A stretch of DNA of 64,000 nt from NCBI GenBank assembly GCA_951813565.1, contig OX638351.1, positions 3,136,001 through 3,200,000 of the forward strand. Direction: 5' to 3'. The position numbers and the translations under genes are program-made. Below the pieces are notes generated by a model. The model was not told where the DNA came from, did no database searches, and saw nothing but the letters and a program-made list of their open reading frames with translations. Origin of the DNA: an uncultured Poribacteria bacterium. Lineage in GTDB: Bacteria > Poribacteria > WGA-4E > WGA-3G. Below, one piece after another: positions 8,345-21,449 of this stretch (within the stretch, counting starts at the first letter, position 1; each line of letters begins with the position of its first letter).

Positions 8345-8396
8345 GCCCTTAGTGCCAAAGTGCAAAGCGGAATTCTACCACTAAGGAGACAAAACA

Positions 8397-9395
8397 ATGG
8401 ATACATCCGAAAAACAACCACGCAAAAAAGCTGATATGCATGTCGGTGTCCAGGGAATTGGGACATCTGAAAAAGAGTTGGAATTCCTTGTCCGGCATGG
8501 TGTAGCACACATGGATGCATCAGTCAGAAACAACCAACCCGAAACCTTGATGGAACACAAATCGGAAGCAGAGGCAGCAGGTGTCAGCCTTGAGATGATT
8601 CACATTGGACTTGCAAAAAGCATTACACTTGCCCAAGACCCACAACGTGATAAAGATATTGATGGCGTTTGTAAGACAATCGAAAATGCTGCAAAGGCAG
8701 GTTTGCGGGGTCTGAATTATAACTTTTGCATCCTGAATCACCAGCGGACTCAAAGTACACAAGGACGTGGCGGTTCGTCTTATAGCACATTTGATTTCTC
8801 CAAGTACGATAATGAAACGCTCTCAGATGCAGGTGAGGTAAGCCGTGAAGAAGCGTTTGATCGTGTCGGATACTTTCTTGAACGTGTCATTCCCGTTGCC
8901 GAAGAGAACAAGGTTCAGATGGCATGTCACCCCAACGATCCACCTGCACCTGTTTTACGTGGTGTTGAACGTTGGAATTACCCCATCTTTGACGGATTAA
9001 AACGATTCGTTGAGATAATGGATAGTCCATACCACGGTTTTAATTTCTGCTGTGGGACTGTCTCGGAAGGTTTAGGCGACCCTGGTACCGAACTATACGA
9101 AATTATTGAGTATTTCGGCAAACGAAAGAAGATTTTCAATATTCATTTTCGCAATATTCGTGGTGGCTTGCATAACTTCCAAGAGGTATGGCCCGATGAG
9201 GGTGATGTGAACATGCATAAGGTCGCCCAAACACTGCGGGATGTAGAATATCCTTATATGCTAATGCCCGATCACGCGCCATCTCACCCAGATGATACTG
9301 CTCCCGCGGGTGTATCTGGTCGTGTGCGGCAAGCGTGGGCATTTCAATTTGGATATATCATTGCGCTAATTCAAGCGGTAAATTCAGAAAAGTGA
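8397..9395 (+). CDS. uxuA: Mannonate dehydratase (UxuA family)
   Basis: YFLERVIPVAEE..MACHPNDPP, NFCCGT, IHFRNIRG, DEGDVNM, MPDHAP motifs. Confidence 0.85.
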   Translation: MDTSEKQPRKKADMHVGVQGIGTSEKELEFLVRHGVAHMDASVRNNQPETLMEHKSEAEAAGVSLEMIHIGLAKSITLAQDPQRDKDIDGVCKTIENAAKAGLRGLNYNFCILNHQRTQSTQGRGGSSYSTFDFSKYDNETLSDAGEVSREEAFDRVGYFLERVIPVAEENKVQMACHPNDPPAPVLRGVERWNYPIFDGLKRFVEIMDSPYHGFNFCCGTVSEGLGDPGTELYEIIEYFGKRKKIFNIHFRNIRGGLHNFQEVWPDEGDVNMHKVAQTLRDVEYPYMLMPDHAPSHPDDTAPAGVSGRVRQAWAFQFGYIIALIQAVNSEK

Positions 9396-9535
9396 ACTGT
9401 TCAATTATATTGTTGATGCAAAAAGGAAGGTATGTTAAAATTCGTAATACCATTTACCTGCATAGTGTTGTTTAAATGGCAGCTGATAATTGGGTAACAG
9501 CAGAATCAAAATATCTTAATCTATTTGGAGGAAAA

Positions 9536-10330
9536 ATGAAAAAGAAGATTACGAATCGCTTGGCGATAGTTAGTATCACTTTATTCGTCATCATGCTCAC
9601 ATTCTCAGTAAAAATTGATGCGATTGAACCCGGGAGTGCTATGGCAATTTGGCTACTTGATGAAGGTGATGGGGATGTAATCAACGATAGTTCTGGAAAT
9701 GAGAACCATGGTGAACTGCAAGGTGGAAAATGGATTGATGGTCCTTCTGGCCCTGCCTTGAGTTTAGATGGAGTAAATGATCGGGTTATCGTGCCGGATT
9801 CCGATAGTTTATATGCCGACAAAGCATGGACAATCACAGCTTGGGTTTCTGTAAATCCTGCCGAGAACGGTTTTGGACATATAATCGGTAAAAGAGACGA
9901 TCCCGCTGCAACAGCAAATTACGCTTTCAGGACGAGTGGTAATGGTCAAGGATGGGAAGCTTACTTTAGGCTAAACGGCTGGAAAGGTGCCTGGAACCAA
10001 GGAGCCGTGAAGAAAGGCGTTTGGTTGTATATGACTGCTACTTATGATGGAACGAATACCATTAGGATTTATGAAAATGGATCCCAAATCGGTGCTGTTA
10101 ACGTTGGTGGTCCTCCACCAAGAGGGAGAGCAAATGTTCACATCGGTGGCTGGACTAACAACACTTCAGAAACTCTTAATGGCATGCTCTACGATGTAGC
10201 GATTTTCAATGTCGCGTTGTCTGAAGCGGATATTAATGAACTGATGGATGACGGCATTGCCGGTTTACTTCCAGTTGAACCTGCTGATAAGCTTACAACC
10301 ACATGGGGTAACATCAAATCCCGACAATAA
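9536..10330 (+). CDS. Secreted LamG/concanavalin-like jelly-roll protein
   Basis: Signal peptide; W..DEGDG...DSSGNENHG, ALSLDG, WLYMTATYDG; C-terminal VEPADKLTTTWGNIK. Confidence 0.85.
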   Translation: MKKKITNRLAIVSITLFVIMLTFSVKIDAIEPGSAMAIWLLDEGDGDVINDSSGNENHGELQGGKWIDGPSGPALSLDGVNDRVIVPDSDSLYADKAWTITAWVSVNPAENGFGHIIGKRDDPAATANYAFRTSGNGQGWEAYFRLNGWKGAWNQGAVKKGVWLYMTATYDGTNTIRIYENGSQIGAVNVGGPPPRGRANVHIGGWTNNTSETLNGMLYDVAIFNVALSEADINELMDDGIAGLLPVEPADKLTTTWGNIKSRQ

Positions 10331-10347
10331 TCGTTTCCTTTTCAAAT

Positions 10348-10380
10348 AAGGCGTAATGTTTCGCATTACGCCTTCCCTCT
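10348..10380 (+). terminator. Hairpin, likely terminator
   Basis: aaggcgtaatg-tttcg-cattacgcctt after the LamG gene. Confidence 0.55.
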
Positions 10381-10397
10381 AATCCAATGAAGGACAG

Positions 10398-10667
10398 ATG
10401 AAAATGGAAGAAAACCATCACGCTGAGAGTTTGGAACATGCACGAAAATTGAACCGCTTGGCATGTAAGCAAATTTCTGATGGTAATCTTGAAGAAGCGA
10501 AAGAGAACTTAATTGAAGCGATACACATAGCGCCCAATTTGGCTGCACCGCACACCAATTTGGGCGTTTTGCATTGTTGGGATGGTGAGTTAGATGAAGC
10601 GATTGCTTTGCATCTCAAGGCACGACCTTTAAAAAGATCAAAACGCACACTGACAATGCAATGCTAA
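10398..10667 (+). pseudogene. Truncated TPR protein
   Basis: About 1.5-2 TPR units (AIHIAPNLAAPHTNLG...EAIALHLKA), then an abrupt non-TPR tail. Confidence 0.5.
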
Positions 10668-10683
10668 TATGGAGATGATGACT

Positions 10684-11964
10684 ATGGCAAAATCACCGAA
10701 CATTCTACTTATCCTCGCTGACGATCACGGATATGGCGATATTTCTGCACACAATGGACCATCAATTCAAACACCAAATATTGACAGGATTGCCACAGAC
10801 GGCGTACGCTTTACACAATTTTATGCGAATTCTTCTGTCTGCTCCCCGAGCCGCGCATCCCTTATGACAGGACGCTACCCCGATAGAGTCGGTGTTCCCG
10901 GTGTGATTCGCACCCATGCCCAGAACAATTGGGGTTATTTTCGACAGGACGCTATCACGTTTCCGTCAATGTTGAAACAGAAAGATTATCGGACAGCACT
11001 CATCGGGAAATGGCATTTAGGTCTTGAAGACGAGAATCACCCGTGCAGACGGGGTTTTGACCACTTTCATGGTTTCCTCGGTGATATGATGGATGACTAT
11101 TACACGCATCTTAGGCATCAGAATAACTACATGCGGCATGACTTTGATACGATTGATCCAAGAGGACACGCTACAGACCTTTTCTCGAATTGGAGCGTGG
11201 ACTTTATTCGTAAGCACGCGCATACATCTCACCCTTTTTTCCTCTATCTTGCCTATAATGCACCGCACACACCGATTCAACCGCCTGATGATTGGGTTGA
11301 ACGGGTAAGAGAACGTGAACCGGATATTTCACCACAACGCGCAAAATACGTTGCACTTGTTGAACACATGGATGCAGGTATCGGACGCTTGCTTGATACA
11401 CTTGAGGAAACCGGTCAGCTTTCCAACACGCTGGTTATCTACACATCTGACAACGGTGGTGCAATGCAGGTCGGTGCTAACAATGGTCAACTGCGTGGGC
11501 AGAAAGGTGAGATGTACGAAGGTGGCATACGCGTGCCTACATGTGCAATGTGGAAAGGACAGATTCCAGAAGGACACGTTACGGATCAGGTAGGAATGCT
11601 TATGGATCTCTACCCGACGGTGTGTGAGGTTGCTGGTGTGCCTATCAACCACGAAATTGAGGGACGTTCAATTTGGCAAACACTTCAAGGAGAAAAACAG
11701 GACTTCTCTGAAAGACTCCTTTATTGGTTGCGAAGAGAGGGCGGGCAACAGTTTCACGGACAGTGTCAACATGCTATTCGGCGTGGCGACATAAAGTTGC
11801 TGCATAACAGACCTTTTGAACCGCTGGAACTTTATGACCTTTCAAGCGATCCGCTGGAAACGACTGATACTTCACAGACGAACGCTAATCTTTATAAAGA
11901 AATGGGGCGTCTGTTTCAGGAAGAGACACAAAAGGCGGGTAATGTGCCGTGGCAGAAAACGTAG
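10684..11964 (+). CDS. Formylglycine-dependent sulfatase (arylsulfatase family)
   Basis: PNILLILADD, CSPSRASLMTG, GKWHLG, TSDNG, YEGGIRVP. Confidence 0.93.
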   Translation: MAKSPNILLILADDHGYGDISAHNGPSIQTPNIDRIATDGVRFTQFYANSSVCSPSRASLMTGRYPDRVGVPGVIRTHAQNNWGYFRQDAITFPSMLKQKDYRTALIGKWHLGLEDENHPCRRGFDHFHGFLGDMMDDYYTHLRHQNNYMRHDFDTIDPRGHATDLFSNWSVDFIRKHAHTSHPFFLYLAYNAPHTPIQPPDDWVERVREREPDISPQRAKYVALVEHMDAGIGRLLDTLEETGQLSNTLVIYTSDNGGAMQVGANNGQLRGQKGEMYEGGIRVPTCAMWKGQIPEGHVTDQVGMLMDLYPTVCEVAGVPINHEIEGRSIWQTLQGEKQDFSERLLYWLRREGGQQFHGQCQHAIRRGDIKLLHNRPFEPLELYDLSSDPLETTDTSQTNANLYKEMGRLFQEETQKAGNVPWQKT

Positions 11965-12088
11965 CCATTTCTCTCATTTACATCTATCTCATAATCGTAA
12001 ACTGATTTAGAAAATACAACAATTGTGCGGTGAATTCACTGTATAATGCCATTTCTGAATGATCGCTTTTGATAAGCAAAAAACGCGT

Positions 12089-12326
12089 TTGTAGTCGCGC
12101 AATTCATTGCGCCTCTTCTTGTAGGAGTGACCTCCTGGTCGCGACTTTTAAACTATATGATCCTTGTAAACACCGAATGACAATGTCCAGTTATAGCGGA
12201 TTCTACAATTAACTGGACATCTGAGCTGTCCGAGGAAACTCCGATTCCCGACTATTAGTGGTTTCGTCGCGATTCGGAGATCGCTCCTACAGAATATATG
12301 TGAACTTATTTACATAATTTACTATA
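12089..12326. repeat. REP cluster and IS630-like MITE (12192-12326)
   Basis: GTAG REPs; imperfect TATAG...CTATA terminal repeats like those of the MITE at 54447. Confidence 0.6.
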
Positions 12327-12529
12327 ATTGTAAAATCTACCATATCAATACCTTGTAGGCGCGCTGTTATAGTATTCAAGTGATTATAGGTTCGCTATAA
12401 AAGGTTTTAGATTTTTTGCACCTACACACTTGCCATCAACCGATGGTATATTTTGCTATCTTCCTGGGTATAAAATGTCTCAATAATTATAGGCTTCATC
12501 TAAATGCTACTGTAGCGTTTACGATTGCG

Positions 12530-12558
12530 TTGACATTCCTCCGCATCCATTATATAAT
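12530..12558 (+). promoter_or_regulatory. Consensus sigma70 promoter of the grpE-like/Hsp70 operon
   Basis: TTGACA-17 bp-TATAAT, exact consensus. Confidence 0.75.
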
Positions 12559-12632
12559 CATAGAGATTTTACTGAATAGTACCGCCTCCAAGTAAACCTT
12601 TGCTAAAAGATGGTTGAATTTTGGGTAAGCAC

Positions 12633-13286
12633 ATGAATGAAAATAACGAGACGAGTCTAAAGACTGAAACAGATGACACAGCAAATTTGTCAACATCACC
12701 GGGAAACGCAGAAACACCGCAACCAAATGGTCTTGCAGAAATAAATCAGACTTTGGCTGCGTTGCAAGACCTATTTGAAAAGCAAATTGCTCGGAACCAA
12801 AATCAGACAGAGATGTTTGACAAAATGTACGCTGAGATGAAGGACTATAAAGAAAGTTTTTTGCTTGAAGTGCTTCACAAACCGATTATCCACAACCTCA
12901 TCCAACTTTACGATAGTTTTCTATCTATAGAATCTCAACTTGATGACATTCTCATCGGTAAAGAAAACAACATTCTCACGGATGAACTATCACAATATCG
13001 CCAGAATTTAGAAAACTTTCGGTATAAACTGGAAGAGGTCCTATACCGCATGGACGTGACACCCTATAAAGACTCCCCTGAAACACTTGACAGACAGTTG
13101 CACAAAACGCGCAAAGTAATTTCATCCGATGATCCAAAACAGGATCAAAAAGTAGCGGAAATTCACAAAATTGGGTTCAACTGGCGAGATAAAGTTTTCC
13201 GTCCGGAAGAGGTCACAATCTTTCGTTATACACCTTCCGCAGGTGAACCTCCTTTGAATAAGAAAGGAGATAACACCAATGGGTAA
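12633..13286 (+). CDS. GrpE-like nucleotide exchange factor
   Basis: Long N-terminal coiled coil; C-terminal LDRQLHK...IHKIGFNWRDKVFRPEEVTI GrpE-type motif; overlaps the Hsp70 start. Confidence 0.8.
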   Translation: MNENNETSLKTETDDTANLSTSPGNAETPQPNGLAEINQTLAALQDLFEKQIARNQNQTEMFDKMYAEMKDYKESFLLEVLHKPIIHNLIQLYDSFLSIESQLDDILIGKENNILTDELSQYRQNLENFRYKLEEVLYRMDVTPYKDSPETLDRQLHKTRKVISSDDPKQDQKVAEIHKIGFNWRDKVFRPEEVTIFRYTPSAGEPPLNKKGDNTNG

Positions 13287-14874
13287 AGTTGTCGGGATTG
13301 ACCTTGGTACAACATTCTCTGTGATAGCACACATCAATGCGCATGGTCAACCAGAGATTATTCCAAATTTAGAAAGCGAGCGTATTACATCTTCGGTAGT
13401 CATGTTTGAGGACAACCTCGTAACTGTCGGAAAAATTGCCAAGCAGAATGCAAGAGCGGTTCCTGAACAGATCGTAGAATTTGTTAAACGCGAGATGGGG
13501 AAATCCAAAGTGGAATTCTTTCGCACATTTGAAGGAAAAGACTACTCCCCTGAAGAACTCTCTGCACTTATTATGACAAAACTCAAGCAGGATGCAGAGG
13601 CATATCTGAATGAAGAGATTACGGATGCGGTTATTACTGTTCCTGCCTATTTTCACGATGCAGAACGGGAGGCTACCCGCAACGCGGGGAAAATCGCTGG
13701 CTTGAATGTCTTACAAGTGCTGAACGAGCCGACTGCCGCCGCACTTGCCTACGGTATTGATCAATTAGGAAATAACCAAAATGTCTTCGTATTTGACCTT
13801 GGTGGCGGAACGTTCGACGTAACAATCATGAAAGTTTCTGAATCAGAGATACAGATGCTTGCAACGAACGGTGATCATCGACTTGGCGGTAAGGATTGGG
13901 ACGATAAAATTATCACGCACGTTGCAGAGATGTTTGAGATAGAACATGGCGAAAATCCGTTGGAGGATCTTCACACATACCAAGACCTTCAACTTGATGC
14001 CATTGCTGCCAAAGAATCTTTGTCTCAGCGGCAGCGGGCATTAATCGTTTGTGGGTATAACGGGAGGACAACTCGCGTGGAGTTGGAGCGCGGAAGGTTT
14101 GAGGAACTGACCGCTGAACTCCTTGAAAGATGCCGCGCCTTGTGTGATGTTGTCCTTTCTGAAGCAGACATGACGTGGACAGATATTGACAAAATCCTGC
14201 TGGTGGGTGGTTCAACTCGGATGCCGATGGTGCAGCAGATGATCGCCACAATCAGCGGCAAAGAGATCAACCCGCATGAAGTCAATCCTGACGAAGTTGT
14301 CGCAATTGGCGCAGCAATTCAGGGAACACTCCGCCAAATATCCGAAGGAAACACTGAAACAGTAGATATGCCTGACGCTGTTATTGAACGGTTTATTGGA
14401 CCAGACGGTGCGCCGAAAGTAACAGTAACCGACGGTGCCACACATAATCTTGGACTCGTTGTCCTCAACTCTCAACGTGAGCATATTATTCACGTCATGA
14501 TTCCTAAGATGACTGCTGTTCCGTGCGAAATTGCCGATAAGTTTTTGACGGTTGATCACAATCAACCCTCGGTTTTAATTGAGGTGGTGCAGGGACTTGA
14601 ACAGGACCAACTCAAGGACGAAATTGACCTATTTGATGAATATAAATTAGGTCAATGCACCCTTGAATTGCCATCAGGTCTACCACAAGGGTCGCCAATT
14701 GAAGTCATCTACAAGTATAACTTGGACCAGAATCTTGAGGTCACAGCTACATCTCTCTCTAACGATGGTGCTACGGCTATCTACGACATTTTTTCCATTA
14801 TTGATCGGCCAACACTCAATGAAGAGGAAGTTGCACAGGCAAAGACTGACCTACAAGACCTCGTAGTTGAATAG
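13279..14874 (+). CDS. Specialised Hsp70 (DnaK-like paralog lacking most of the helical lid)
   Basis: GIDLGTT, TVPAYF, NEPTAAA, DLGGGTFD, VGGSTRMP; 531 aa. Confidence 0.93.
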   Translation: MGKVVGIDLGTTFSVIAHINAHGQPEIIPNLESERITSSVVMFEDNLVTVGKIAKQNARAVPEQIVEFVKREMGKSKVEFFRTFEGKDYSPEELSALIMTKLKQDAEAYLNEEITDAVITVPAYFHDAEREATRNAGKIAGLNVLQVLNEPTAAALAYGIDQLGNNQNVFVFDLGGGTFDVTIMKVSESEIQMLATNGDHRLGGKDWDDKIITHVAEMFEIEHGENPLEDLHTYQDLQLDAIAAKESLSQRQRALIVCGYNGRTTRVELERGRFEELTAELLERCRALCDVVLSEADMTWTDIDKILLVGGSTRMPMVQQMIATISGKEINPHEVNPDEVVAIGAAIQGTLRQISEGNTETVDMPDAVIERFIGPDGAPKVTVTDGATHNLGLVVLNSQREHIIHVMIPKMTAVPCEIADKFLTVDHNQPSVLIEVVQGLEQDQLKDEIDLFDEYKLGQCTLELPSGLPQGSPIEVIYKYNLDQNLEVTATSLSNDGATAIYDIFSIIDRPTLNEEEVAQAKTDLQDLVVE

Positions 14875-14908
14875 GTAAAGACTCTTAAAATAAAACACCT
14901 TTATAGCA

Positions 14909-15890
14909 GTTGTAGGTTGGGTAGAACGGATACCTACAATAAAGTTAGGTGTTGAAGAGGGTTTTAAGATGCATGTGAAACTGAAATTTCTAAAAATGAG
15001 TGAAACCCAACACGTTATCATATAAGGGTTAGTTGGATTTCGCTATTCTATCTATACAAACGTGAGTTTGATAATTAACCAGAGCCATTCAATTCTCCAA
15101 TGATTTCTTTCTTTCCCAAGACTCCAAAAAATCGCGTCAACCACCATGCTGACAACAAAATGCACGCTCATCCAAGATGCAAAAACGTATCAACCCAACT
15201 TTTCCTGCAAACTTATTGTCAATATATTGGATATCTATTGTTCCTAACGCCACAAAAACCTCTGATCACTACATAGAACTTGGTATAATATCAGTATGAA
15301 AAGAGAAAACCGATCCCCAAACACACCGAAAATCGAAAGTAACTCTCTAATGCAAAGACGACAACGCAAAACTTATCAAAATAAAATATCTCCAGCAAAA
15401 GGAAACCCGTGTTCCTCAACGCAGATGAAAAATATAAAATCTAAATAAAATGTCTATAAACCCTTACATATACTGAGTTTATAGTGAATTTCAAAAAGTT
15501 GCCACGGTATGAAAAAAGTTACCGTATGGTAACTTTTTAAGGAGATGATTCCAATAAAATGAGAAGAAAAATACAATCAATTCGTGCATCTGGGAACGAT
15601 TTTTAGGTCCCAATTTTTCGACTAAAACCGATAATTAGACGAAAATTGAATGCCTCTGGATAATTAACAGGACAGAGGCAAATTGAACAGAGAACGGGCA
15701 TATTTGCTTAAAAAATCGTTATTTTGGTGTTTTTAAACCCCCTAAGTCCCCTTATCAGAGGAACTTTAAGAGGAAATGTGGAAGTCCTAACTATTTATCA
15801 AACTCACATTATACAAATAGTCATTGAAAACAGAAGTCCTTGTGAAATTTAATAAAGTTTGATCGTTTACCGCTCTACCCAACCTACGAC
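14909..15890. mobile_element. Three-level nested non-autonomous elements
   Basis: Outer inverted REP pair gttgtaggttgggtagaacgg / ccgctctacccaacctacgac. Middle CGTGAG MITE 15061-15808 (9-bp TSD, 8/9 match). Inner CCAGAG element 15079-15659 (TSD ATAATTAA). Confidence 0.85.
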
Positions 15891-15942
15891 GACTATCTTT
15901 AGGCAGTGGGTAATATCATGTTTGAACAGAAGGAATGAACGT

Positions 15943-17178
15943 ATGTCCAAACGTGAGGAATTTATATCATTTATCAATACCCTCAAAACTGCTTCCCCAA
16001 CAATTACCGATGAACAACGTAAGGGTTTCCTGCGATTAGGAGTCCAACAGCACGGTCTTACTGTTGATGAAGCGTCTAATATCCTTAATGCGGCTGGATT
16101 GGCTATCGGTGAAAGGGTAGATTATTTTGAAATATTAGGATTCTCAATTGCAGAAATACAAAGCTTAAACGAATCGGCTACCGCAAGTCAGGTTGAAGCA
16201 GCACACAAAAAACTTTATACTGCTTCGTTGAGGGCAGGAGGTCGTCCTCGTCCTGATGGTAGAACAGAAGAACAGTGGCGCGTACTCTTGAATCAAGCAC
16301 GTAATACGCTAATAGACCCGCAAAAACGCAGCGTATACGTGGCAACTCAACAACACGAAGAAAGTTTTATAGTCAAGGCATCAAAGCCCAAAAATCTTGA
16401 CAACATGGAGCTTATTCCCGCAGGCGAATTTGAAATGGGCAGCAATGATGACGAATCTTTAGAAGACGAACATCTTATACACACCGTTTTTCTTGACGCA
16501 TTCTATATAGACAAATATCCTGTGACCAATGCACAATATAAGGCATTTGTAGACGCTAACCCACAGTGGCGTAAGCACGACATACCTAAAAAATACCACG
16601 ATGTTGACTACCTAAGACATTGGCGTGGCAGCAGTTTTCCGAAAACTGAGGCTGATCATCCGGTGGTTAATGTGAGCTGGTATGCCGCGATGGCTTACGC
16701 ACAATGGCAAGGTAAACGTTTGCCCACAGAGGCGGAGTGGGAAAAGGCTGCGCGAGGCGGCGTCGAAGATCAAAAATATCCGTGGGGTGATTTTGCGGAT
16801 CCTTCTATGGCAAATTATGATTGGAACGTTGGCGACACCACACCTGTGGGAAAGTACCCACCAAACGGGTACGATTTATATGACATGTGTGGCAACGTAT
16901 GGGAGTGGTGTCTTGATGCATATCATGAAGGTGTTTCTATGAGTTCATCGCCTCAAAATCCAATTTCCGGTGCTAATACTATTGAATGGATTGCTAACCA
17001 TTTTTTAGATGTTGAATCAAACCGCGTATTACGCGGCGGTTCTTGGCGTATTCCTGCGTTGTTTGTGCGGACAGCGAATCGCAACGCAGAAACTCCATCT
17101 TTTTCACTCAATGTTATCGGGTTCCGTTGTGTCTGGGGAGTAACATCTGAAAGCATACCACCTCCTATTGAAATATAG
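15943..17178 (+). CDS. J-like domain (RPD) + FGE-sulfatase/CLec-fold protein, copy 1
   Basis: DYFEILG..AHKKLY..RPDG..LNQARNTLIDPQKR; GEFEMGS, RLPTEAEWEKAARGG, GNVWEW, RGGSW, IGFRC. Confidence 0.85.
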   Translation: MSKREEFISFINTLKTASPTITDEQRKGFLRLGVQQHGLTVDEASNILNAAGLAIGERVDYFEILGFSIAEIQSLNESATASQVEAAHKKLYTASLRAGGRPRPDGRTEEQWRVLLNQARNTLIDPQKRSVYVATQQHEESFIVKASKPKNLDNMELIPAGEFEMGSNDDESLEDEHLIHTVFLDAFYIDKYPVTNAQYKAFVDANPQWRKHDIPKKYHDVDYLRHWRGSSFPKTEADHPVVNVSWYAAMAYAQWQGKRLPTEAEWEKAARGGVEDQKYPWGDFADPSMANYDWNVGDTTPVGKYPPNGYDLYDMCGNVWEWCLDAYHEGVSMSSSPQNPISGANTIEWIANHFLDVESNRVLRGGSWRIPALFVRTANRNAETPSFSLNVIGFRCVWGVTSESIPPPIEI

Positions 17179-17213
17179 GTAAGTCAGACCGATTCTGGAA
17201 AGAGAACTAACCG

Positions 17214-18578
17214 ATGTCCAAACGCGATGAATTCATTACAATTATTCAGGCAGTTAGAAATGCTTCGCCGACTATTTCGAATGAACAACGCAAAGGGTTC
17301 CTCCGACAAGCGGTACAGCAGCACAATCTTACTGTTGAAGAGGCGACTAATATCCTTGATGCGTCAGGATTGGTTATTGGTGCACAGATTGATTATTTTG
17401 AGGTATTAGGTTTATCTATCTCAGAACTTGAAAACCAAAGTGAATCGGTCATCGTAAATCGCGTTGAGACAGCACACAAAAAACTGTACAGTGCTTCTTT
17501 GAGGGCAGGTGGTCGTCCCCGCGCCGATGGTCGGACAGAAGAACAGTGGCGGAATGTCTTAAATCAAGCACGTGATGTGTTGAAAGATCCGCAAAAGCGA
17601 ACTGAACACATTGCAACGTTACAGGCTGAAATATCGCAACCTGTTGATCTTACCTCGCGACAGGAATTCCCTACACCAGAAAGGACATCTTTAGGAATCT
17701 CGACCCCAGAAGATATGTTGCTTATTCCCGCAGGCGAGTTCCAAATGGGAAGCAATAACGAAAGAGCAAAAGTCCGTAAAAAACCTGCTTGTAAAGTCTA
17801 CGTTGATGCGTTCTATATGGACAAATATCCGGTAACGAACGCACAATATAAGGTCTTCATCGATGCCAACCCGCGGTGGGGAAAGCCATCAAAACGGGAC
17901 GAGTGGAATAGGGTGAAAAAGATACTATCTATTTTTGGGAAATACCACGATGGAAACTACCTAAAACATTGGCATGGCAACAATTTTCCGGTTGGGAAGG
18001 ATGATCATCCTGTAACTCACGTCAGTTGGTATGCGGCGATGGCGTATGCGCAATGGGCGGGAAAACGTCTACCAACTGAAGCGGAGTGGGAAAAAGCAGC
18101 TCGCGGCGGATTAAAAGGACAAAAATACCCATGGGGGAATCTCATGGATTCAAATATGGTGTTTTGTGGAAAGGATGTTGGCAAGACCACTTCTGTCGGA
18201 AAATATCCCCCGAACAACTACGGTTTGCATGATATAGTAGGGAATGTCTGGGAGTGGTGTGTTGATGAGTATGTTCCGAATTTCTACTCTTCTGCACCGG
18301 TTCGGAATCCAGTTGCTGGTTTAAGCACAAAAAAGGAATTAGAGTTATTAATTTTCAATTTTAGGAACGTTTCAACTGATCGTGTATTACGGGGTGGGTC
18401 ACTGTTTACTTCATCAGAACCCATTCAGACGGCTATACGTCGTGGGCGTTCGCCACTTCTCACAGTGGTATATTCAACAAAACTCGTGACCTCACATTCA
18501 ACAAGGTTCGCTGCTAACATAGGTTTCCGATGTGCTTGGGACACACGGCTTAAGTCGAATTTTTATAACCTGTATTGA
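17214..18578 (+). CDS. J-like domain (RAD) + FGE-sulfatase/CLec-fold protein, copy 2
   Basis: Same architecture as copy 1. Confidence 0.85.
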   Translation: MSKRDEFITIIQAVRNASPTISNEQRKGFLRQAVQQHNLTVEEATNILDASGLVIGAQIDYFEVLGLSISELENQSESVIVNRVETAHKKLYSASLRAGGRPRADGRTEEQWRNVLNQARDVLKDPQKRTEHIATLQAEISQPVDLTSRQEFPTPERTSLGISTPEDMLLIPAGEFQMGSNNERAKVRKKPACKVYVDAFYMDKYPVTNAQYKVFIDANPRWGKPSKRDEWNRVKKILSIFGKYHDGNYLKHWHGNNFPVGKDDHPVTHVSWYAAMAYAQWAGKRLPTEAEWEKAARGGLKGQKYPWGNLMDSNMVFCGKDVGKTTSVGKYPPNNYGLHDIVGNVWEWCVDEYVPNFYSSAPVRNPVAGLSTKKELELLIFNFRNVSTDRVLRGGSLFTSSEPIQTAIRRGRSPLLTVVYSTKLVTSHSTRFAANIGFRCAWDTRLKSNFYNLY

Positions 18579-18633
18579 TCCCTACTGTGGATCCGTTTAC
18601 ATAATTTTTACGATAGAAACACCAATTTACGAC

Positions 18634-20010
18634 ATGTCTAAACGCGAAGAATTTATTTCAGTCATCAATACACTCAAAGCACTTTCCTCTACAATTACTG
18701 ATGAGATGCGCAAAGGACTTCTACAGCAAGCGGTACAACAGTATGGTCTATCTATAAGTGAAGCGGATGAAATACTTCAGGCATCGGGACTAATTGTTGG
18801 TGAAAGGACAAACTATTTTGAAGTTCTGGGATTTTCCATAGAGGCGCTTCAAGACCAAAGTGAACCCGCAATTGCAAATCGCGTTGATGAAGCACACAAA
18901 AAATTGTATAGTGAATCGTTACGTGCAGGTGGTCTCCCGCGTCCGGATGGTAGGACACAAGAACAGTGGCGGACTGTTTTAAATCAAGCACGTGATATCC
19001 TGAAAGATACACAAAAACGGGTTGAACACATTGCAACGTTACAGGCTGAAATCTCCCAAAGTGTTGATCCTATATTGTCAGAGGAACTTCCTATTCCTGA
19101 ATCAGAGGAACTTCCCATATCTGAACAGACATCTTTGAGTGTTTCCGTGCCAGAAGATATGGTGCTTGTCCCAGCTGGTGATTTCCAAATGGGAAGCAAA
19201 ATCGAACTGGGGAGTACACGTGAAAATCAAGAGCATACAGTCTACGTCGATGCATTCTGTATGGATAAATATCCAGTGACAAACGCACAATACAAGAGGT
19301 TTATTGATGCAATTCCAGCATGGCGCAAGTCATCAAACCGGAGGCGTCGGAACAAGCTAAGTATCAGGATGATCTCTAATGTTGATATGTATAAGTATAA
19401 CGATAGAGAATACCTAAAGAATTGGGATGGGAACAACTTTCCGAATGGAAAGGAAGACCATCCCGTCACTCATGTCAGTTGGTATGCGGCCATGGCGTAT
19501 GCAAAATGGATTGGCAAACGTTTACCGTCAGAAGCTGAATGGGAAAAGGCGGCACGTGGCGGCTTAGCCGGGCAAAAATATCCATGGGGTAACTCTTTGG
19601 ATGTAGATAAGGCATATAGTGATAAGAATGCTGGCGAAACTATTTCTGTAGGAAAATTTCCTGCCAATAACTATGGACTGTTTGACATGGTGGGGAACGT
19701 CTGGGAGTGGTGCCTTGATGCGTATGATCCAGATTTTTATACTACTTCACCACTACGGAATCCAATTGCAGGTGCAAACTCGAAGGAGGATCTTGATAAA
19801 TTAATTTCGAACTTCTGGGAAGTTACAACTGATCGCGTATTACGTGGGGGTTCACTGTTCACTTCATCAGAACCTGTTCAAACGAGTGTTCGATGTAGCG
19901 GTAAACCTATACGTACCAGCTTCCTCACCTCACTGTATTTATCAAGTTTTGTGGCGAATATTGGGTTCCGATGTGCTTGGGACACACAGCTTAAGTCCAA
20001 ATCTTTATAA
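18634..20010 (+). CDS. J-like domain (RPD) + FGE-sulfatase/CLec-fold protein, copy 3
   Basis: Same architecture. Start set by homology (MSKREEF). Confidence 0.85.
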   Translation: MSKREEFISVINTLKALSSTITDEMRKGLLQQAVQQYGLSISEADEILQASGLIVGERTNYFEVLGFSIEALQDQSEPAIANRVDEAHKKLYSESLRAGGLPRPDGRTQEQWRTVLNQARDILKDTQKRVEHIATLQAEISQSVDPILSEELPIPESEELPISEQTSLSVSVPEDMVLVPAGDFQMGSKIELGSTRENQEHTVYVDAFCMDKYPVTNAQYKRFIDAIPAWRKSSNRRRRNKLSIRMISNVDMYKYNDREYLKNWDGNNFPNGKEDHPVTHVSWYAAMAYAKWIGKRLPSEAEWEKAARGGLAGQKYPWGNSLDVDKAYSDKNAGETISVGKFPANNYGLFDMVGNVWEWCLDAYDPDFYTTSPLRNPIAGANSKEDLDKLISNFWEVTTDRVLRGGSLFTSSEPVQTSVRCSGKPIRTSFLTSLYLSSFVANIGFRCAWDTQLKSKSL

Positions 20011-20075
20011 CCTATTCTGATTTTTAGAGTGGATACTTTTACATAATTTTTACGATAGAAACACCAATTTACGAC

Positions 20076-21449
20076 ATGTCTAAACGCGAAGAATTTATTT
20101 CAGTCATCAATACACTCAAAGCACTTTCCTCTACAATTACTGATGAGATGCGCAAAGGACTTCTACAGCAAGCGGTACAACAGTATGGTCTATCTATAAG
20201 TGAAGCGGATGAAATACTTCAGGCATCGGGACTAATTGTTGGTGAAAGGACAAACTATTTTGAAGTTCTGGGATTTTCCATAGAGGCGCTTCAAGACCAA
20301 AGTGAACCCGCAATTGCAAATCGCGTTGATGAAGCACACAAAAAATTGTATAGTGAATCGTTACGTGCAGGTGGTCTCCCGCGTCCGGATGGTAGGACAC
20401 AAGAACAGTGGCGGACTGTTTTAAATCAAGCACGTGATATCCTGAAAGATACACAAAAACGGGTTGAACACATTGCAACGTTACAGGCTGAAATCTCCCA
20501 AAGTGTTGATCCTATCTTGTCAGAGGAACTTCCTATTCCTGAATCAGAGGAACTTCCCATATCTGAACAGACATCTTTGAGTGTTTCCGTGCCAGAAGAT
20601 ATGGTGCTTGTCCCAGCTGGTGATTTCCAAATGGGAAGCGATAATGAAAAGGCAAATGACCGTGAAAAGCCTGCACATACGGTCTATGTTGACGCGTTCT
20701 ATATGGATAAATATCCGGTAACGAACGAACAATATAAGGCGTTCGTAGAAGCCAACCAGCAATGGGGCAAACAACCCTCGAATTGGGGTAAACAGAACAG
20801 AATCAAAAAGAGGATGCTCTCTATATTCGAGAAATACCGCGGAGTTGGCTACCTAAAACATTGGAATGGAAACGAATTTCCGATTGCAAAGGCTGACCAT
20901 CCTGTAACTCACGTTAGTTGGTATGCATCAATGGCGTATGCAAAATGGGTTGGCAAACGTTTACCGACAGAGGCGGAGTGGGAAAAAGCAGCACGCGGCG
21001 GCTTAACAGGGCAAAAATATCCATGGGGAGATATTCTGGATTCAAACATGGTATATTGTGGAAAAGATGTAGGTGAGACCACTTCTGTTGGAAAGTATCC
21101 AGCGAATAACTACGGTTTGCATGATATAGTAGGCAACGTCTGGGAATGGTGTCTTGATGAACATGATGAAGATTTCTATTCTGCTTCGTCTGTTCGGAAT
21201 CCGGTTGCTGGTGCGAACACAAAAGAGGATTTAAATTTATTAATTCATGATTTTAGAAACGTTTCAACTGATCGCGTATTACGTGGGGGTTCACTGCTCA
21301 CTTCATCAGAACCTGTTCAAACGAGTGTTCGATGTAGCGGTAAACCTATACGTACCAGCTTCCTCACCTCACTGTATTTATCAAGTTTTGTGGCGAATAT
21401 TGGGTTCCGATGTGCTTGGGACACACAGCTTAAGTCCAAATCTTTATAA
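20076..21449 (+). CDS. J-like domain (RPD) + FGE-sulfatase/CLec-fold protein, copy 4
   Basis: Same architecture; both ends nearly identical to copy 3. Confidence 0.85.
   Translation: MSKREEFISVINTLKALSSTITDEMRKGLLQQAVQQYGLSISEADEILQASGLIVGERTNYFEVLGFSIEALQDQSEPAIANRVDEAHKKLYSESLRAGGLPRPDGRTQEQWRTVLNQARDILKDTQKRVEHIATLQAEISQSVDPILSEELPIPESEELPISEQTSLSVSVPEDMVLVPAGDFQMGSDNEKANDREKPAHTVYVDAFYMDKYPVTNEQYKAFVEANQQWGKQPSNWGKQNRIKKRMLSIFEKYRGVGYLKHWNGNEFPIAKADHPVTHVSWYASMAYAKWVGKRLPTEAEWEKAARGGLTGQKYPWGDILDSNMVYCGKDVGETTSVGKYPANNYGLHDIVGNVWEWCLDEHDEDFYSASSVRNPVAGANTKEDLNLLIHDFRNVSTDRVLRGGSLLTSSEPVQTSVRCSGKPIRTSFLTSLYLSSFVANIGFRCAWDTQLKSKSL

Follow-up and report, generated by a model that had tools for sequence, protein, structure and literature searches.

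A candidate private Hsp70 machine with an array of HPD-less J-fold adaptors in Poribacteria

INTRODUCTION

How could a J fold serve an Hsp70 once its His-Pro-Asp (HPD) motif, which according to PMC8215388 no Hsp70 system tested so far can do without, has been lost? The question is raised by positions 12,530 to 21,449 of a 64,000-nt stretch from an uncultured Poribacteria bacterium, a sponge symbiont (GenBank assembly GCA_951813565.1, contig OX638351.1, positions 3,136,001 to 3,200,000 of the forward strand; hereafter, the window), where a grpE gene, an Hsp70 gene, and four tandem adaptor genes follow one another. An earlier note, made from the sequence alone, had described six co-oriented genes at this place, and all six were indeed found on the plus strand at the place that it gave.

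12633-13286, plus strand: grpE, 217 aa, alternative TTG start at 12621; divergent and dedicated; accessory, lost in some lineages
13279-14874, plus strand: Hsp70, 531 aa; lidless, with ATPase residues kept and a family-specific patch on lobes IB/IIB
15943-17178, plus strand: adaptor 1, 411 aa; orthologous to the gene that opens the arrays of relatives
17214-18578, plus strand: adaptor 2, 454 aa; same architecture as adaptor 1
18634-20010, plus strand: adaptor 3, 458 aa; ends near-identical to those of adaptor 4, middle 63-87% alike (mosaic)
20076-21449, plus strand: adaptor 4, 457 aa; FGE middle nearer to that of adaptor 2 than to that of adaptor 3

We lean towards the view that these genes encode an orthogonal Hsp70 machine insulated from DnaK/DnaJ, whose adaptors would recruit a private Hsp70 to targets via a J-like module. 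As far as sequences can tell, the system combines a J fold, the loss of HPD and of the site that reads it, the absence of a lid, tight co-inheritance, and purifying selection.

RESULTS

The adaptors carry a J fold without its trigger

Adaptor 1 is laid out as a three-helix module (residues 1-56), an HPD-less J fold (57-138), and a Cys-less FGE domain (153-398), and an FGE-sulfatase domain was recognized in all four adaptors (E 1e-58 to 1e-67). With a 76-row alignment, AlphaFold returned the three-helix part (1-56) and a J fold (57-138) with a predicted local distance difference test (pLDDT) score of 87.5; the fold of full-length adaptor 1, based on a four-row alignment, reached a pLDDT of 39 and is uninformative on the head. 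All 42 rows that Foldseek listed for residues 57-138 were DnaJ/J-domain chains or complexes read as J proteins, none of them with an E value below 0.001. VIA-align gave J-type structures at ranks 1-23 (Z 9.1 and 8.9; best root mean square deviation 2.9 over 77 residues), hhalign against canonical J domains gave 95% (E 3.8e-8), and 12/14 weak PDB sequence matches were J proteins. The J fold in the adaptors is therefore real, and the fold check that the earlier note had proposed for residues ~55-135 bore it out. The domain has the four helices of a class C J-domain protein, with a helix II that is one turn longer than the canonical one and an extended loop.

The trigger is missing. HPD or HPE occurred in 0/76 and 0/96 segments of the J-like domain, which never reached Pfam DnaJ (best E 0.013; 19/76 at E values up to 1), and three possible registers place Y-x-E/A, L-x-A, or R-x-D in the HPD column. 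The basic helix II of canonical J domains (R22, K26, R27) is replaced by small or acidic residues, with E or D at K26 in 60/76 (register dependent). Invariant residues are Y92, S95, L96, G99, R103, D105, G106, W112, R113, L116, and N117. The previously proposed alignment with DnaJ thus stood for the fold and fell for the trigger: a register equating RPD with HPD was rejected, as the P is kept in only 39/113, and the motif quoted for it merges different copies, RADG being the reading of copy 2, and NYFE and DTQKR those of copies 3 and 4.

The three-helix module gave middling fold matches at best (ENT, RecX; Z 5.6). It and the J-like domain are independent units, the latter standing first in a second type of locus (see below), and the order is reversed once. 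In the host genome the N-terminal module is confined to the four array genes. A catalytic Cys pair after the RGGS motif was found in 0/77 parseable sequences among 98 FGE adaptors, in agreement with the proposal of non-catalytic heads, and the absence of any signal peptide or transmembrane segment (maximal 19-residue hydropathy 1.23) fits the cytoplasmic location proposed at the same time.

The Hsp70 lacks the HPD-reading site and the lid

The Hsp70 (Pfam HSP70, E 4e-120) was compared with E. coli DnaK across the 117 relatives of at least 490 aa among 120 listed. The catalytic residues K70, E171, D194, T199, and D201 of the nucleotide-binding domain (NBD) are kept in 117/117 and D8 in 115/117 (gapped in two), while N13 is F in 115/117; the catalytic and allosteric residues checked and kept are K70, E171, T199, P143, R151, K414, and D481. 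R167 is replaced by Q in 115/117 (H in two), L391 by V in 117/117, and D477 by K in 103/117, the E206 and E217 columns are often basic or neutral (K or Q), and the linker VLLL, which now follows an insertion some 20 residues long, has become VTVT. According to the accessible parts of PMC8215388 and PMC13012618, the changed positions are DnaJ-contact residues. The HPD-reading site is thus lost from a protein with intact ATPase residues. The chain stops after lid helix A, without a helical lid, and both cleft salt bridges are gone (R56 to Q, E264 to L, E267 to I), a loss that the accessible literature ties to fast ADP release in HscA.

The protein lacks the J-reading site (R167, VLLL linker, D477) and the lid that define DnaK, and it scored 419.6 bits against an NCBIfam DnaK cut-off of 648 and 328.5 against an HscA cut-off of 708.55. 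Tree and identity place it apart from HscA and HscC. A single sequence, P0210, has the Hsp70 NBD joined directly to the module.

Hsp70 and module are inherited together

Among 176 Poribacteria genomes, the module and the special Hsp70 were each found in 61. In a cross-count made by hand, in which related genomes are not independent, both occurred in 60 and neither in 114; the two mismatches are G129 (module alone) and G009 (Hsp70 fragment alone). The linkage of J-FGE genes with Hsp70 in related genomes, on which the earlier note had staked its reading, is conserved. Presence is patchy within one genus (both in 21/65 genomes). Among relatives with names, 41/42 loci belong to Candidatus Poribacteria and the remaining one to an "uncultured bacterium."

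The 17 fetched loci contain 115 adaptors, a lower bound because some arrays extend past the fetched stretch; 98 have FGE heads, 12 WD40, and 1 ankyrin, and 4 are cut or split. TPR, HEAT, PEGA, cyclophilin, T2SSG, and ABC ATPase heads were also found on the module. With up to 13 adaptors per genome and such varied heads, the expandable set of binding modules foreseen in the earlier note was borne out. Several individual arrays deserve mention, e.g., an adaptor with five tandem FGE domains (L145 11445-16001; 1519 aa, cut by the stretch) beside a neighbor with a cyclophilin head, a J-like domain on a 1877-aa ankyrin-repeat protein straight after the Hsp70 (L154 2582-8212), and an array into which a type ISP restriction-modification gene and insertion sequence elements have been inserted (L037 2296-5391). 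In genome G005 a single adaptor stands at L039 and the remainder of the array 600 kb away; the genes past this adaptor (8390-16005) have motifs that we take to be those of cas genes.

Second-type loci (L048, L049, L140, L143, L144, L147, L050) encode an Hsp70-vWA protein that keeps R167 (6/6), a GrpE, a Q167 Hsp70, and J-like ankyrin/HEAT/FGE proteins, in some cases with a caspase-PEGA-FGE gene upstream. More remote metagenome loci gave an Hsp70 in 78/79 cases (50-57% alike, mostly 514-528 aa), with Q in the R167 column in 78/78, GrpE upstream in 65/78, and a J-like gene downstream in 58 of the 59 having a downstream gene called (FGE in 43); none of these remote J-like genes has HPD. Remote and Poribacteria Hsp70s form a single clade (support 1.0), and the remote J-like domain matched canonical J domains at 81%, the remote helical repeats the three-helix module at 92%. 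A related triad is therefore present in non-Poribacteria metagenome contigs, so the system is no sponge-specific invention and represents a lineage-expanded member of a wider class. The module was not found in plasmids or viral contigs, and in the ESM Atlas it gave only leads below 0.9. Atlas Hsp70 clusters of 524-575 aa were commonest in Verrucomicrobiota, Planctomycetota, and Cyanobacteriota, which is a lead as well; a cluster look-up of ten distant members returned no names. A Rhodococcus plasmid (L251; NZ_CP070617.1) carries an operon of a 510-aa Hsp70 (40% alike), a TPR protein, GrpE, and an FtsK/SpoIIIE protein.

The dedicated GrpE is dispensable

The dedicated GrpE exceeds the Pfam GrpE cut-off (47.6 versus 25.8 bits), falls below every NCBIfam GrpE equivalog cut-off, and its exchange activity is putative. 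Its gene is present in 16/17 fetched loci, is missing from genome G007 and others, and is replaced by an ankyrin gene at loci L099 and L107, and genomes G149 and G033 have the housekeeping grpE only. The dedicated GrpE is hence dispensable to the system, and the self-contained machine including GrpE that had been postulated does not hold in general. A GrpE domain also occurs within a 1426-aa open frame of G007 (C1:4028159-4028632).

The module is predicted to dock at lobes IB and IIB

The Hsp70 was modeled with module residues 55-138 and ATP in three runs alongside 3 controls. The complex passed with a score of 0.76 (best control 0.09), the runs agreeing in at least 90% of contacts with a partner pLDDT of at least 83; the pass mark is reached by 116/157 solved and 2/215 mismatched pairs, counts that are only roughly applicable here. 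The predicted interface joins Hsp70 residues 63-68 and 80-83 (IB) and 205-234 (IIB) to module residues 93-106, has no contact at Hsp70 146 or 380-385 in any run, and differs from the solved J-Hsp70 interface. Modeling of a J-Hsp70 complex, which the earlier note had suggested together with GrpE, accordingly yielded a prediction in which the conserved J loop lies across IB/IIB in place of canonical docking. Seven positions on this patch, F68, K205, D209, A216, L228, L231, and Y234, hardly vary among the close (117), remote (78), and vWA-fused (6) Hsp70s, whereas DnaK, HscA, and HscC have other residues there.

Selection, fusions, and the question of function

The adaptors comprise old orthologous groups plus recent duplications. 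Over 26 disjoint close pairs, the ratio of nonsynonymous to synonymous substitution rates (dN/dS) was 0.17-0.22 for the cores, 0.29 for the C-terminal binding segment, and 0.47 for an insert, values that show purifying selection on a maintained repertoire, with no sign of an arms race. A diversity-generating retroelement (DGR) was considered and rejected, as no template repeat was found for the variable region (the last 190 nt of each adaptor gene match paralogues only); reverse transcriptase matches occur at two places in the genome, both far from the locus.

In genomes G007 and G011, complete Zorya I operons (L129 11220-18891, L130 182-8228) encode fusion proteins of ZorD that end in the three-helix plus J-like module. 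One module sub-lineage (77-85% alike) stands N-terminally on DctQ and on an ABC permease in their native operons (L132, L133, L139, L131). The fusions are sporadic (ZorD 2/30, DctQ 3/110; ABC permease too), and the module therefore behaves as a portable tag whose fusion does not single out defense; the Zorya fusion was rejected as a proof of defense on the same grounds. PADLOC found no match for the core (P0001-P0004). The conflict, defense, or symbiosis role suggested earlier is not supported as written, given a dN/dS of 0.17-0.29, the lack of a DGR template and of a PADLOC core match, and the related triad outside Poribacteria; a defense role is no more than a possibility.

Genomic setting and non-coding features

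The host genome is one 5.43-Mb contig, in which the housekeeping dnaK and grpE-dnaJ stand apart from the locus. The chromosomal site is fixed, with a Cys-type sulfatase gene upstream and a GH95 gene as flanks. The non-coding features of the locus are as follows.

12530..12558, plus strand: sigma-70-type promoter ahead of grpE, 12/12 consensus, 17-nt spacer
14903..15896, no strand: nest of non-coding repeats, strain-specific, outside the system
15080-15658: 579-nt element, 9 copies in the genome
15659-15811: 153-nt element, 23 copies in the genome, adjoining the 579-nt element

The promoter is exact in 10/17 related loci, has one mismatch in 1/17, and was not found in 6/17. Upstream of it, window positions 12045-12320 are dense in short palindromic repeats with up to about 180 genome matches. 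The 1068-nt gap between Hsp70 and adaptor 1 holds the 579-nt and 153-nt elements within an outer inverted repeat; both are multicopy repeats, in line with the nested elements described before. The gap measures 40-431 nt in 16/17 related loci; the nest is strain-specific and not part of the system.

Adaptors 3 and 4 share identical end runs of 478 and 193 nt around their dissimilar middles. Both distinct middles are present in contigs of 4/4 public runs (in run X5 the copy-4 middle is split over two pieces), and the duplication is therefore not an assembly error.

DISCUSSION

A proposed mechanism and its weak points

The orthogonal machine would work as follows. Each adaptor's head (FGE-fold; in relatives also WD40, ankyrin, TPR, or HEAT) would bind a particular cytoplasmic target, and the J-like module would then bring the private Hsp70 to it. 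Two parts of the module, the loop L96-G106 and the end by which helix II is extended, are predicted to dock across NBD lobes IB/IIB at the nucleotide cleft, away from the linker, which would keep the Hsp70 beside the target and might tune nucleotide binding or release. The lidless peptide groove would grip and free exposed segments quickly, and would therefore suit the remodeling or disassembly of folded complexes better than general refolding. GrpE would reset the cycle; with neither cleft salt bridge left, its loss may be tolerated. As targets, a constant set of protein complexes, whether the cell's own or foreign, is more likely than one that evolves fast. Taken further, and more tentatively, with somewhat less than even confidence, the locus may exemplify a widespread Hsp70 class in which the J fold was repurposed to clamp the nucleotide cleft (IB/IIB) in place of an HPD trigger at the linker; in Poribacteria it would have become a portable recruiting tag that was multiplied into an array of receptors and also joined to resident transporters and to a Zorya effector, which would thereby come under a private chaperone.

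Several observations weigh against this picture. Solved J-Hsp70 complexes exist, and the modeled pair could have passed through likeness to them; the prediction moreover drew on the same alignments, so that conserved patch and predicted site do not count as independent evidence. Alternatively, the patch might be conserved for the sake of the family's GrpE or of the fold, and it is kept in the vWA-fused Hsp70s that retain R167. The remote family keeps the patch yet has a different loop: hhalign between the two J-like families gave 48.7% in another register, and some distant members are without most of the loop. In this strain, furthermore, 1 kb of repeats parts Hsp70 from adaptors. A pairing of L96 and P102 with residues in the loop of the remote family, drawn by eye, was not reproduced by hhalign and was dropped.

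Alternative explanations

The pair could have co-diverged at the canonical site, with a module that docks at the linker as DnaJ does and stimulates ATP hydrolysis by a replaced trigger (e.g., Y92-x-E/A), which Q146 and the altered linker would read. This would account for the conservation of P419 (117/117) and Q378 (116/117), for an invariant Y92 in the H33 column, and for an apparent charge swap between the mostly acidic K26 column and the E206/E217 columns, and a compensation between R167 and D35 is known from the accessible portion of PMC13012618. We consider it improbable, since all three runs place the module at IB/IIB without touching 146 or 380-385 and the invariant residues cluster in the very loop that the prediction uses. 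More doubtful still is a reading without client remodeling, in which the J-like module would serve as a scaffold or as an EAD-like homotypic tag and the Hsp70 as its nucleotide-bound structural partner: lid and trigger are lacking, unrelated proteins have acquired the module as they would a small helical tag, and the accessible text of PMC10191838 offers Zuo1/Ssz1 as a precedent for a non-activating J-NBD contact, but all catalytic and allosteric Hsp70 residues checked are kept and GrpE accompanies most remote loci (65/78).

An immune or conflict system is possible, if on the unlikely side: the heads would sense phage proteins or others of foreign origin, which the Hsp70 cycle would disarm or to which it would respond as a switch. 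Such a role is compatible with the orthogonal machine, whose targets it would define. Patchy presence, the gain and loss of tandem copies, their mosaic make-up, the module-ZorD fusions in complete Zorya I operons, and the Hsp70-vWA and caspase-PEGA-FGE genes of related loci speak for it, as do FGS, WD40, and repeat heads and Hsp70+GrpE+DnaJ in the predicted conflict systems of PMC7159879, as far as its text is accessible. Against it stand the sporadic nature of the fusions on ZorD and DctQ alike, a binding-segment dN/dS below 0.3 over the 26 pairs, the missing DGR template and PADLOC core match, and the fixed site between sulfatase and GH95 genes. A role in sulfatase maturation is unlikely, and we give very little credence to FGE-like heads that bind the sulfatase motif non-catalytically and pass new sulfatases to the Hsp70. 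The Cys-type sulfatase upstream invites the idea, and the genome has 46 sulfatase-like open reading frames (ORFs) and 20 FGE-like ORFs with the Cys pair in 0/17 parseable ones; however, the genome also encodes one radical-SAM maturase (523 bits against a cut-off of 349), sulfatases occur in 0/79 remote loci (as far as fetched) and 3/18 distant Poribacteria loci, the heads diverge greatly over their binding segment and give way to WD40 or ankyrin, and the operon has its own promoter.

Comparison with known systems

With DnaK-DnaJ-GrpE and class C J proteins, the locus shares an Hsp70 ATPase, a GrpE, and a J fold joined to a targeting domain; it differs in lacking HPD and lid, in the changed R167, L391, and D477, in up to 13 adaptors per genome, and in the predicted IB/IIB docking. 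The host genome itself encodes, at G000:C1:1534071-1535120 (minus strand; L053), a protein that combines a canonical, HPD-bearing J domain with an FGE-like domain similar to the adaptor heads (E 1.8e-90), a DnaK-served counterpart of the adaptor architecture, and J matches occur in similar-length frames of genomes G003 and G023. HscC with DjlB/DjlC and HscA with HscB of E. coli are likewise specialized Hsp70s with adjoining J partners and without cleft salt bridges, but both keep R167, the identity to each is 35.5%, the clades are separate (support 0.95-1.0), and neither is served by GrpE according to the accessible text of PMC8215388.

In the available text on the second theme of the GAP1-N2 GTPase conflict systems (Kaur et al. 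2020, PMC7159879), Hsp70 and GrpE, sometimes with a second Hsp70, accompany a DnaJ domain fused to a binding module, and FGS domains are non-enzymatic binders elsewhere in that paper. In contrast, the window locus has no GTPase, GAP1, or FNIII gene (its flanks being sulfatase and GH95; neighbors of other loci were partly scanned), the text and 2 supplements of PMC7159879 gave 0 matches to Poribacteria, and its accessible portion does not discuss HPD loss. DGR targets with a C-type-lectin/FGE fold, i.e., TvpA, resemble the heads in the lack of a Cys pair and in a variable C-terminal segment (PDB 2y3c, E 6e-11), whereas variation at the locus arises by duplication and recombination under purifying selection, with no template repeat found. 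Hip brackets the lobes of the Hsp70 NBD, a further likeness. A J hairpin that touches an NBD off the canonical site is reported, in the accessible part of PMC10191838, for the ribosome-associated complex, where the Zuo1 J domain sits on the atypical Hsp70 Ssz1; there Zuo1 has retained HPD, spans IIA and IIB, and serves to activate a different Hsp70, and Ssz1 is without ATP hydrolysis, whereas at our locus HPD is gone, the predicted site is IB/IIB, and the catalytic residues are kept.

No description of the system was found in the literature searched, which did not extend to subscription papers, to bioRxiv supplements, or to the bacterial J-protein survey of Barriot et al. 2020, which may cover the class. 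A survey of about 280,000 J proteins (PMC10410713) restricted its main set to sequences in which the motif is complete, and HPD-less systems are therefore easily overlooked. At this locus, nature provides a case in which the action of a J fold that lacks HPD can be put to the test, and specific residues can be named on either face of the predicted interface. If the reading is true, it would represent a second way of coupling a co-chaperone to Hsp70; the chaperone pair should then be free of cross-talk with DnaK, and non-catalytic FGE domains, a plentiful group that awaits explanation, could be traced to their targets. The predicted grip on a different surface would be a new way to steer Hsp70 to chosen targets. 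The system would work like a specialized Hsp70/J/GrpE machine, but it stands outside DnaK, HscA, HscC, the canonical J proteins, and FGE.

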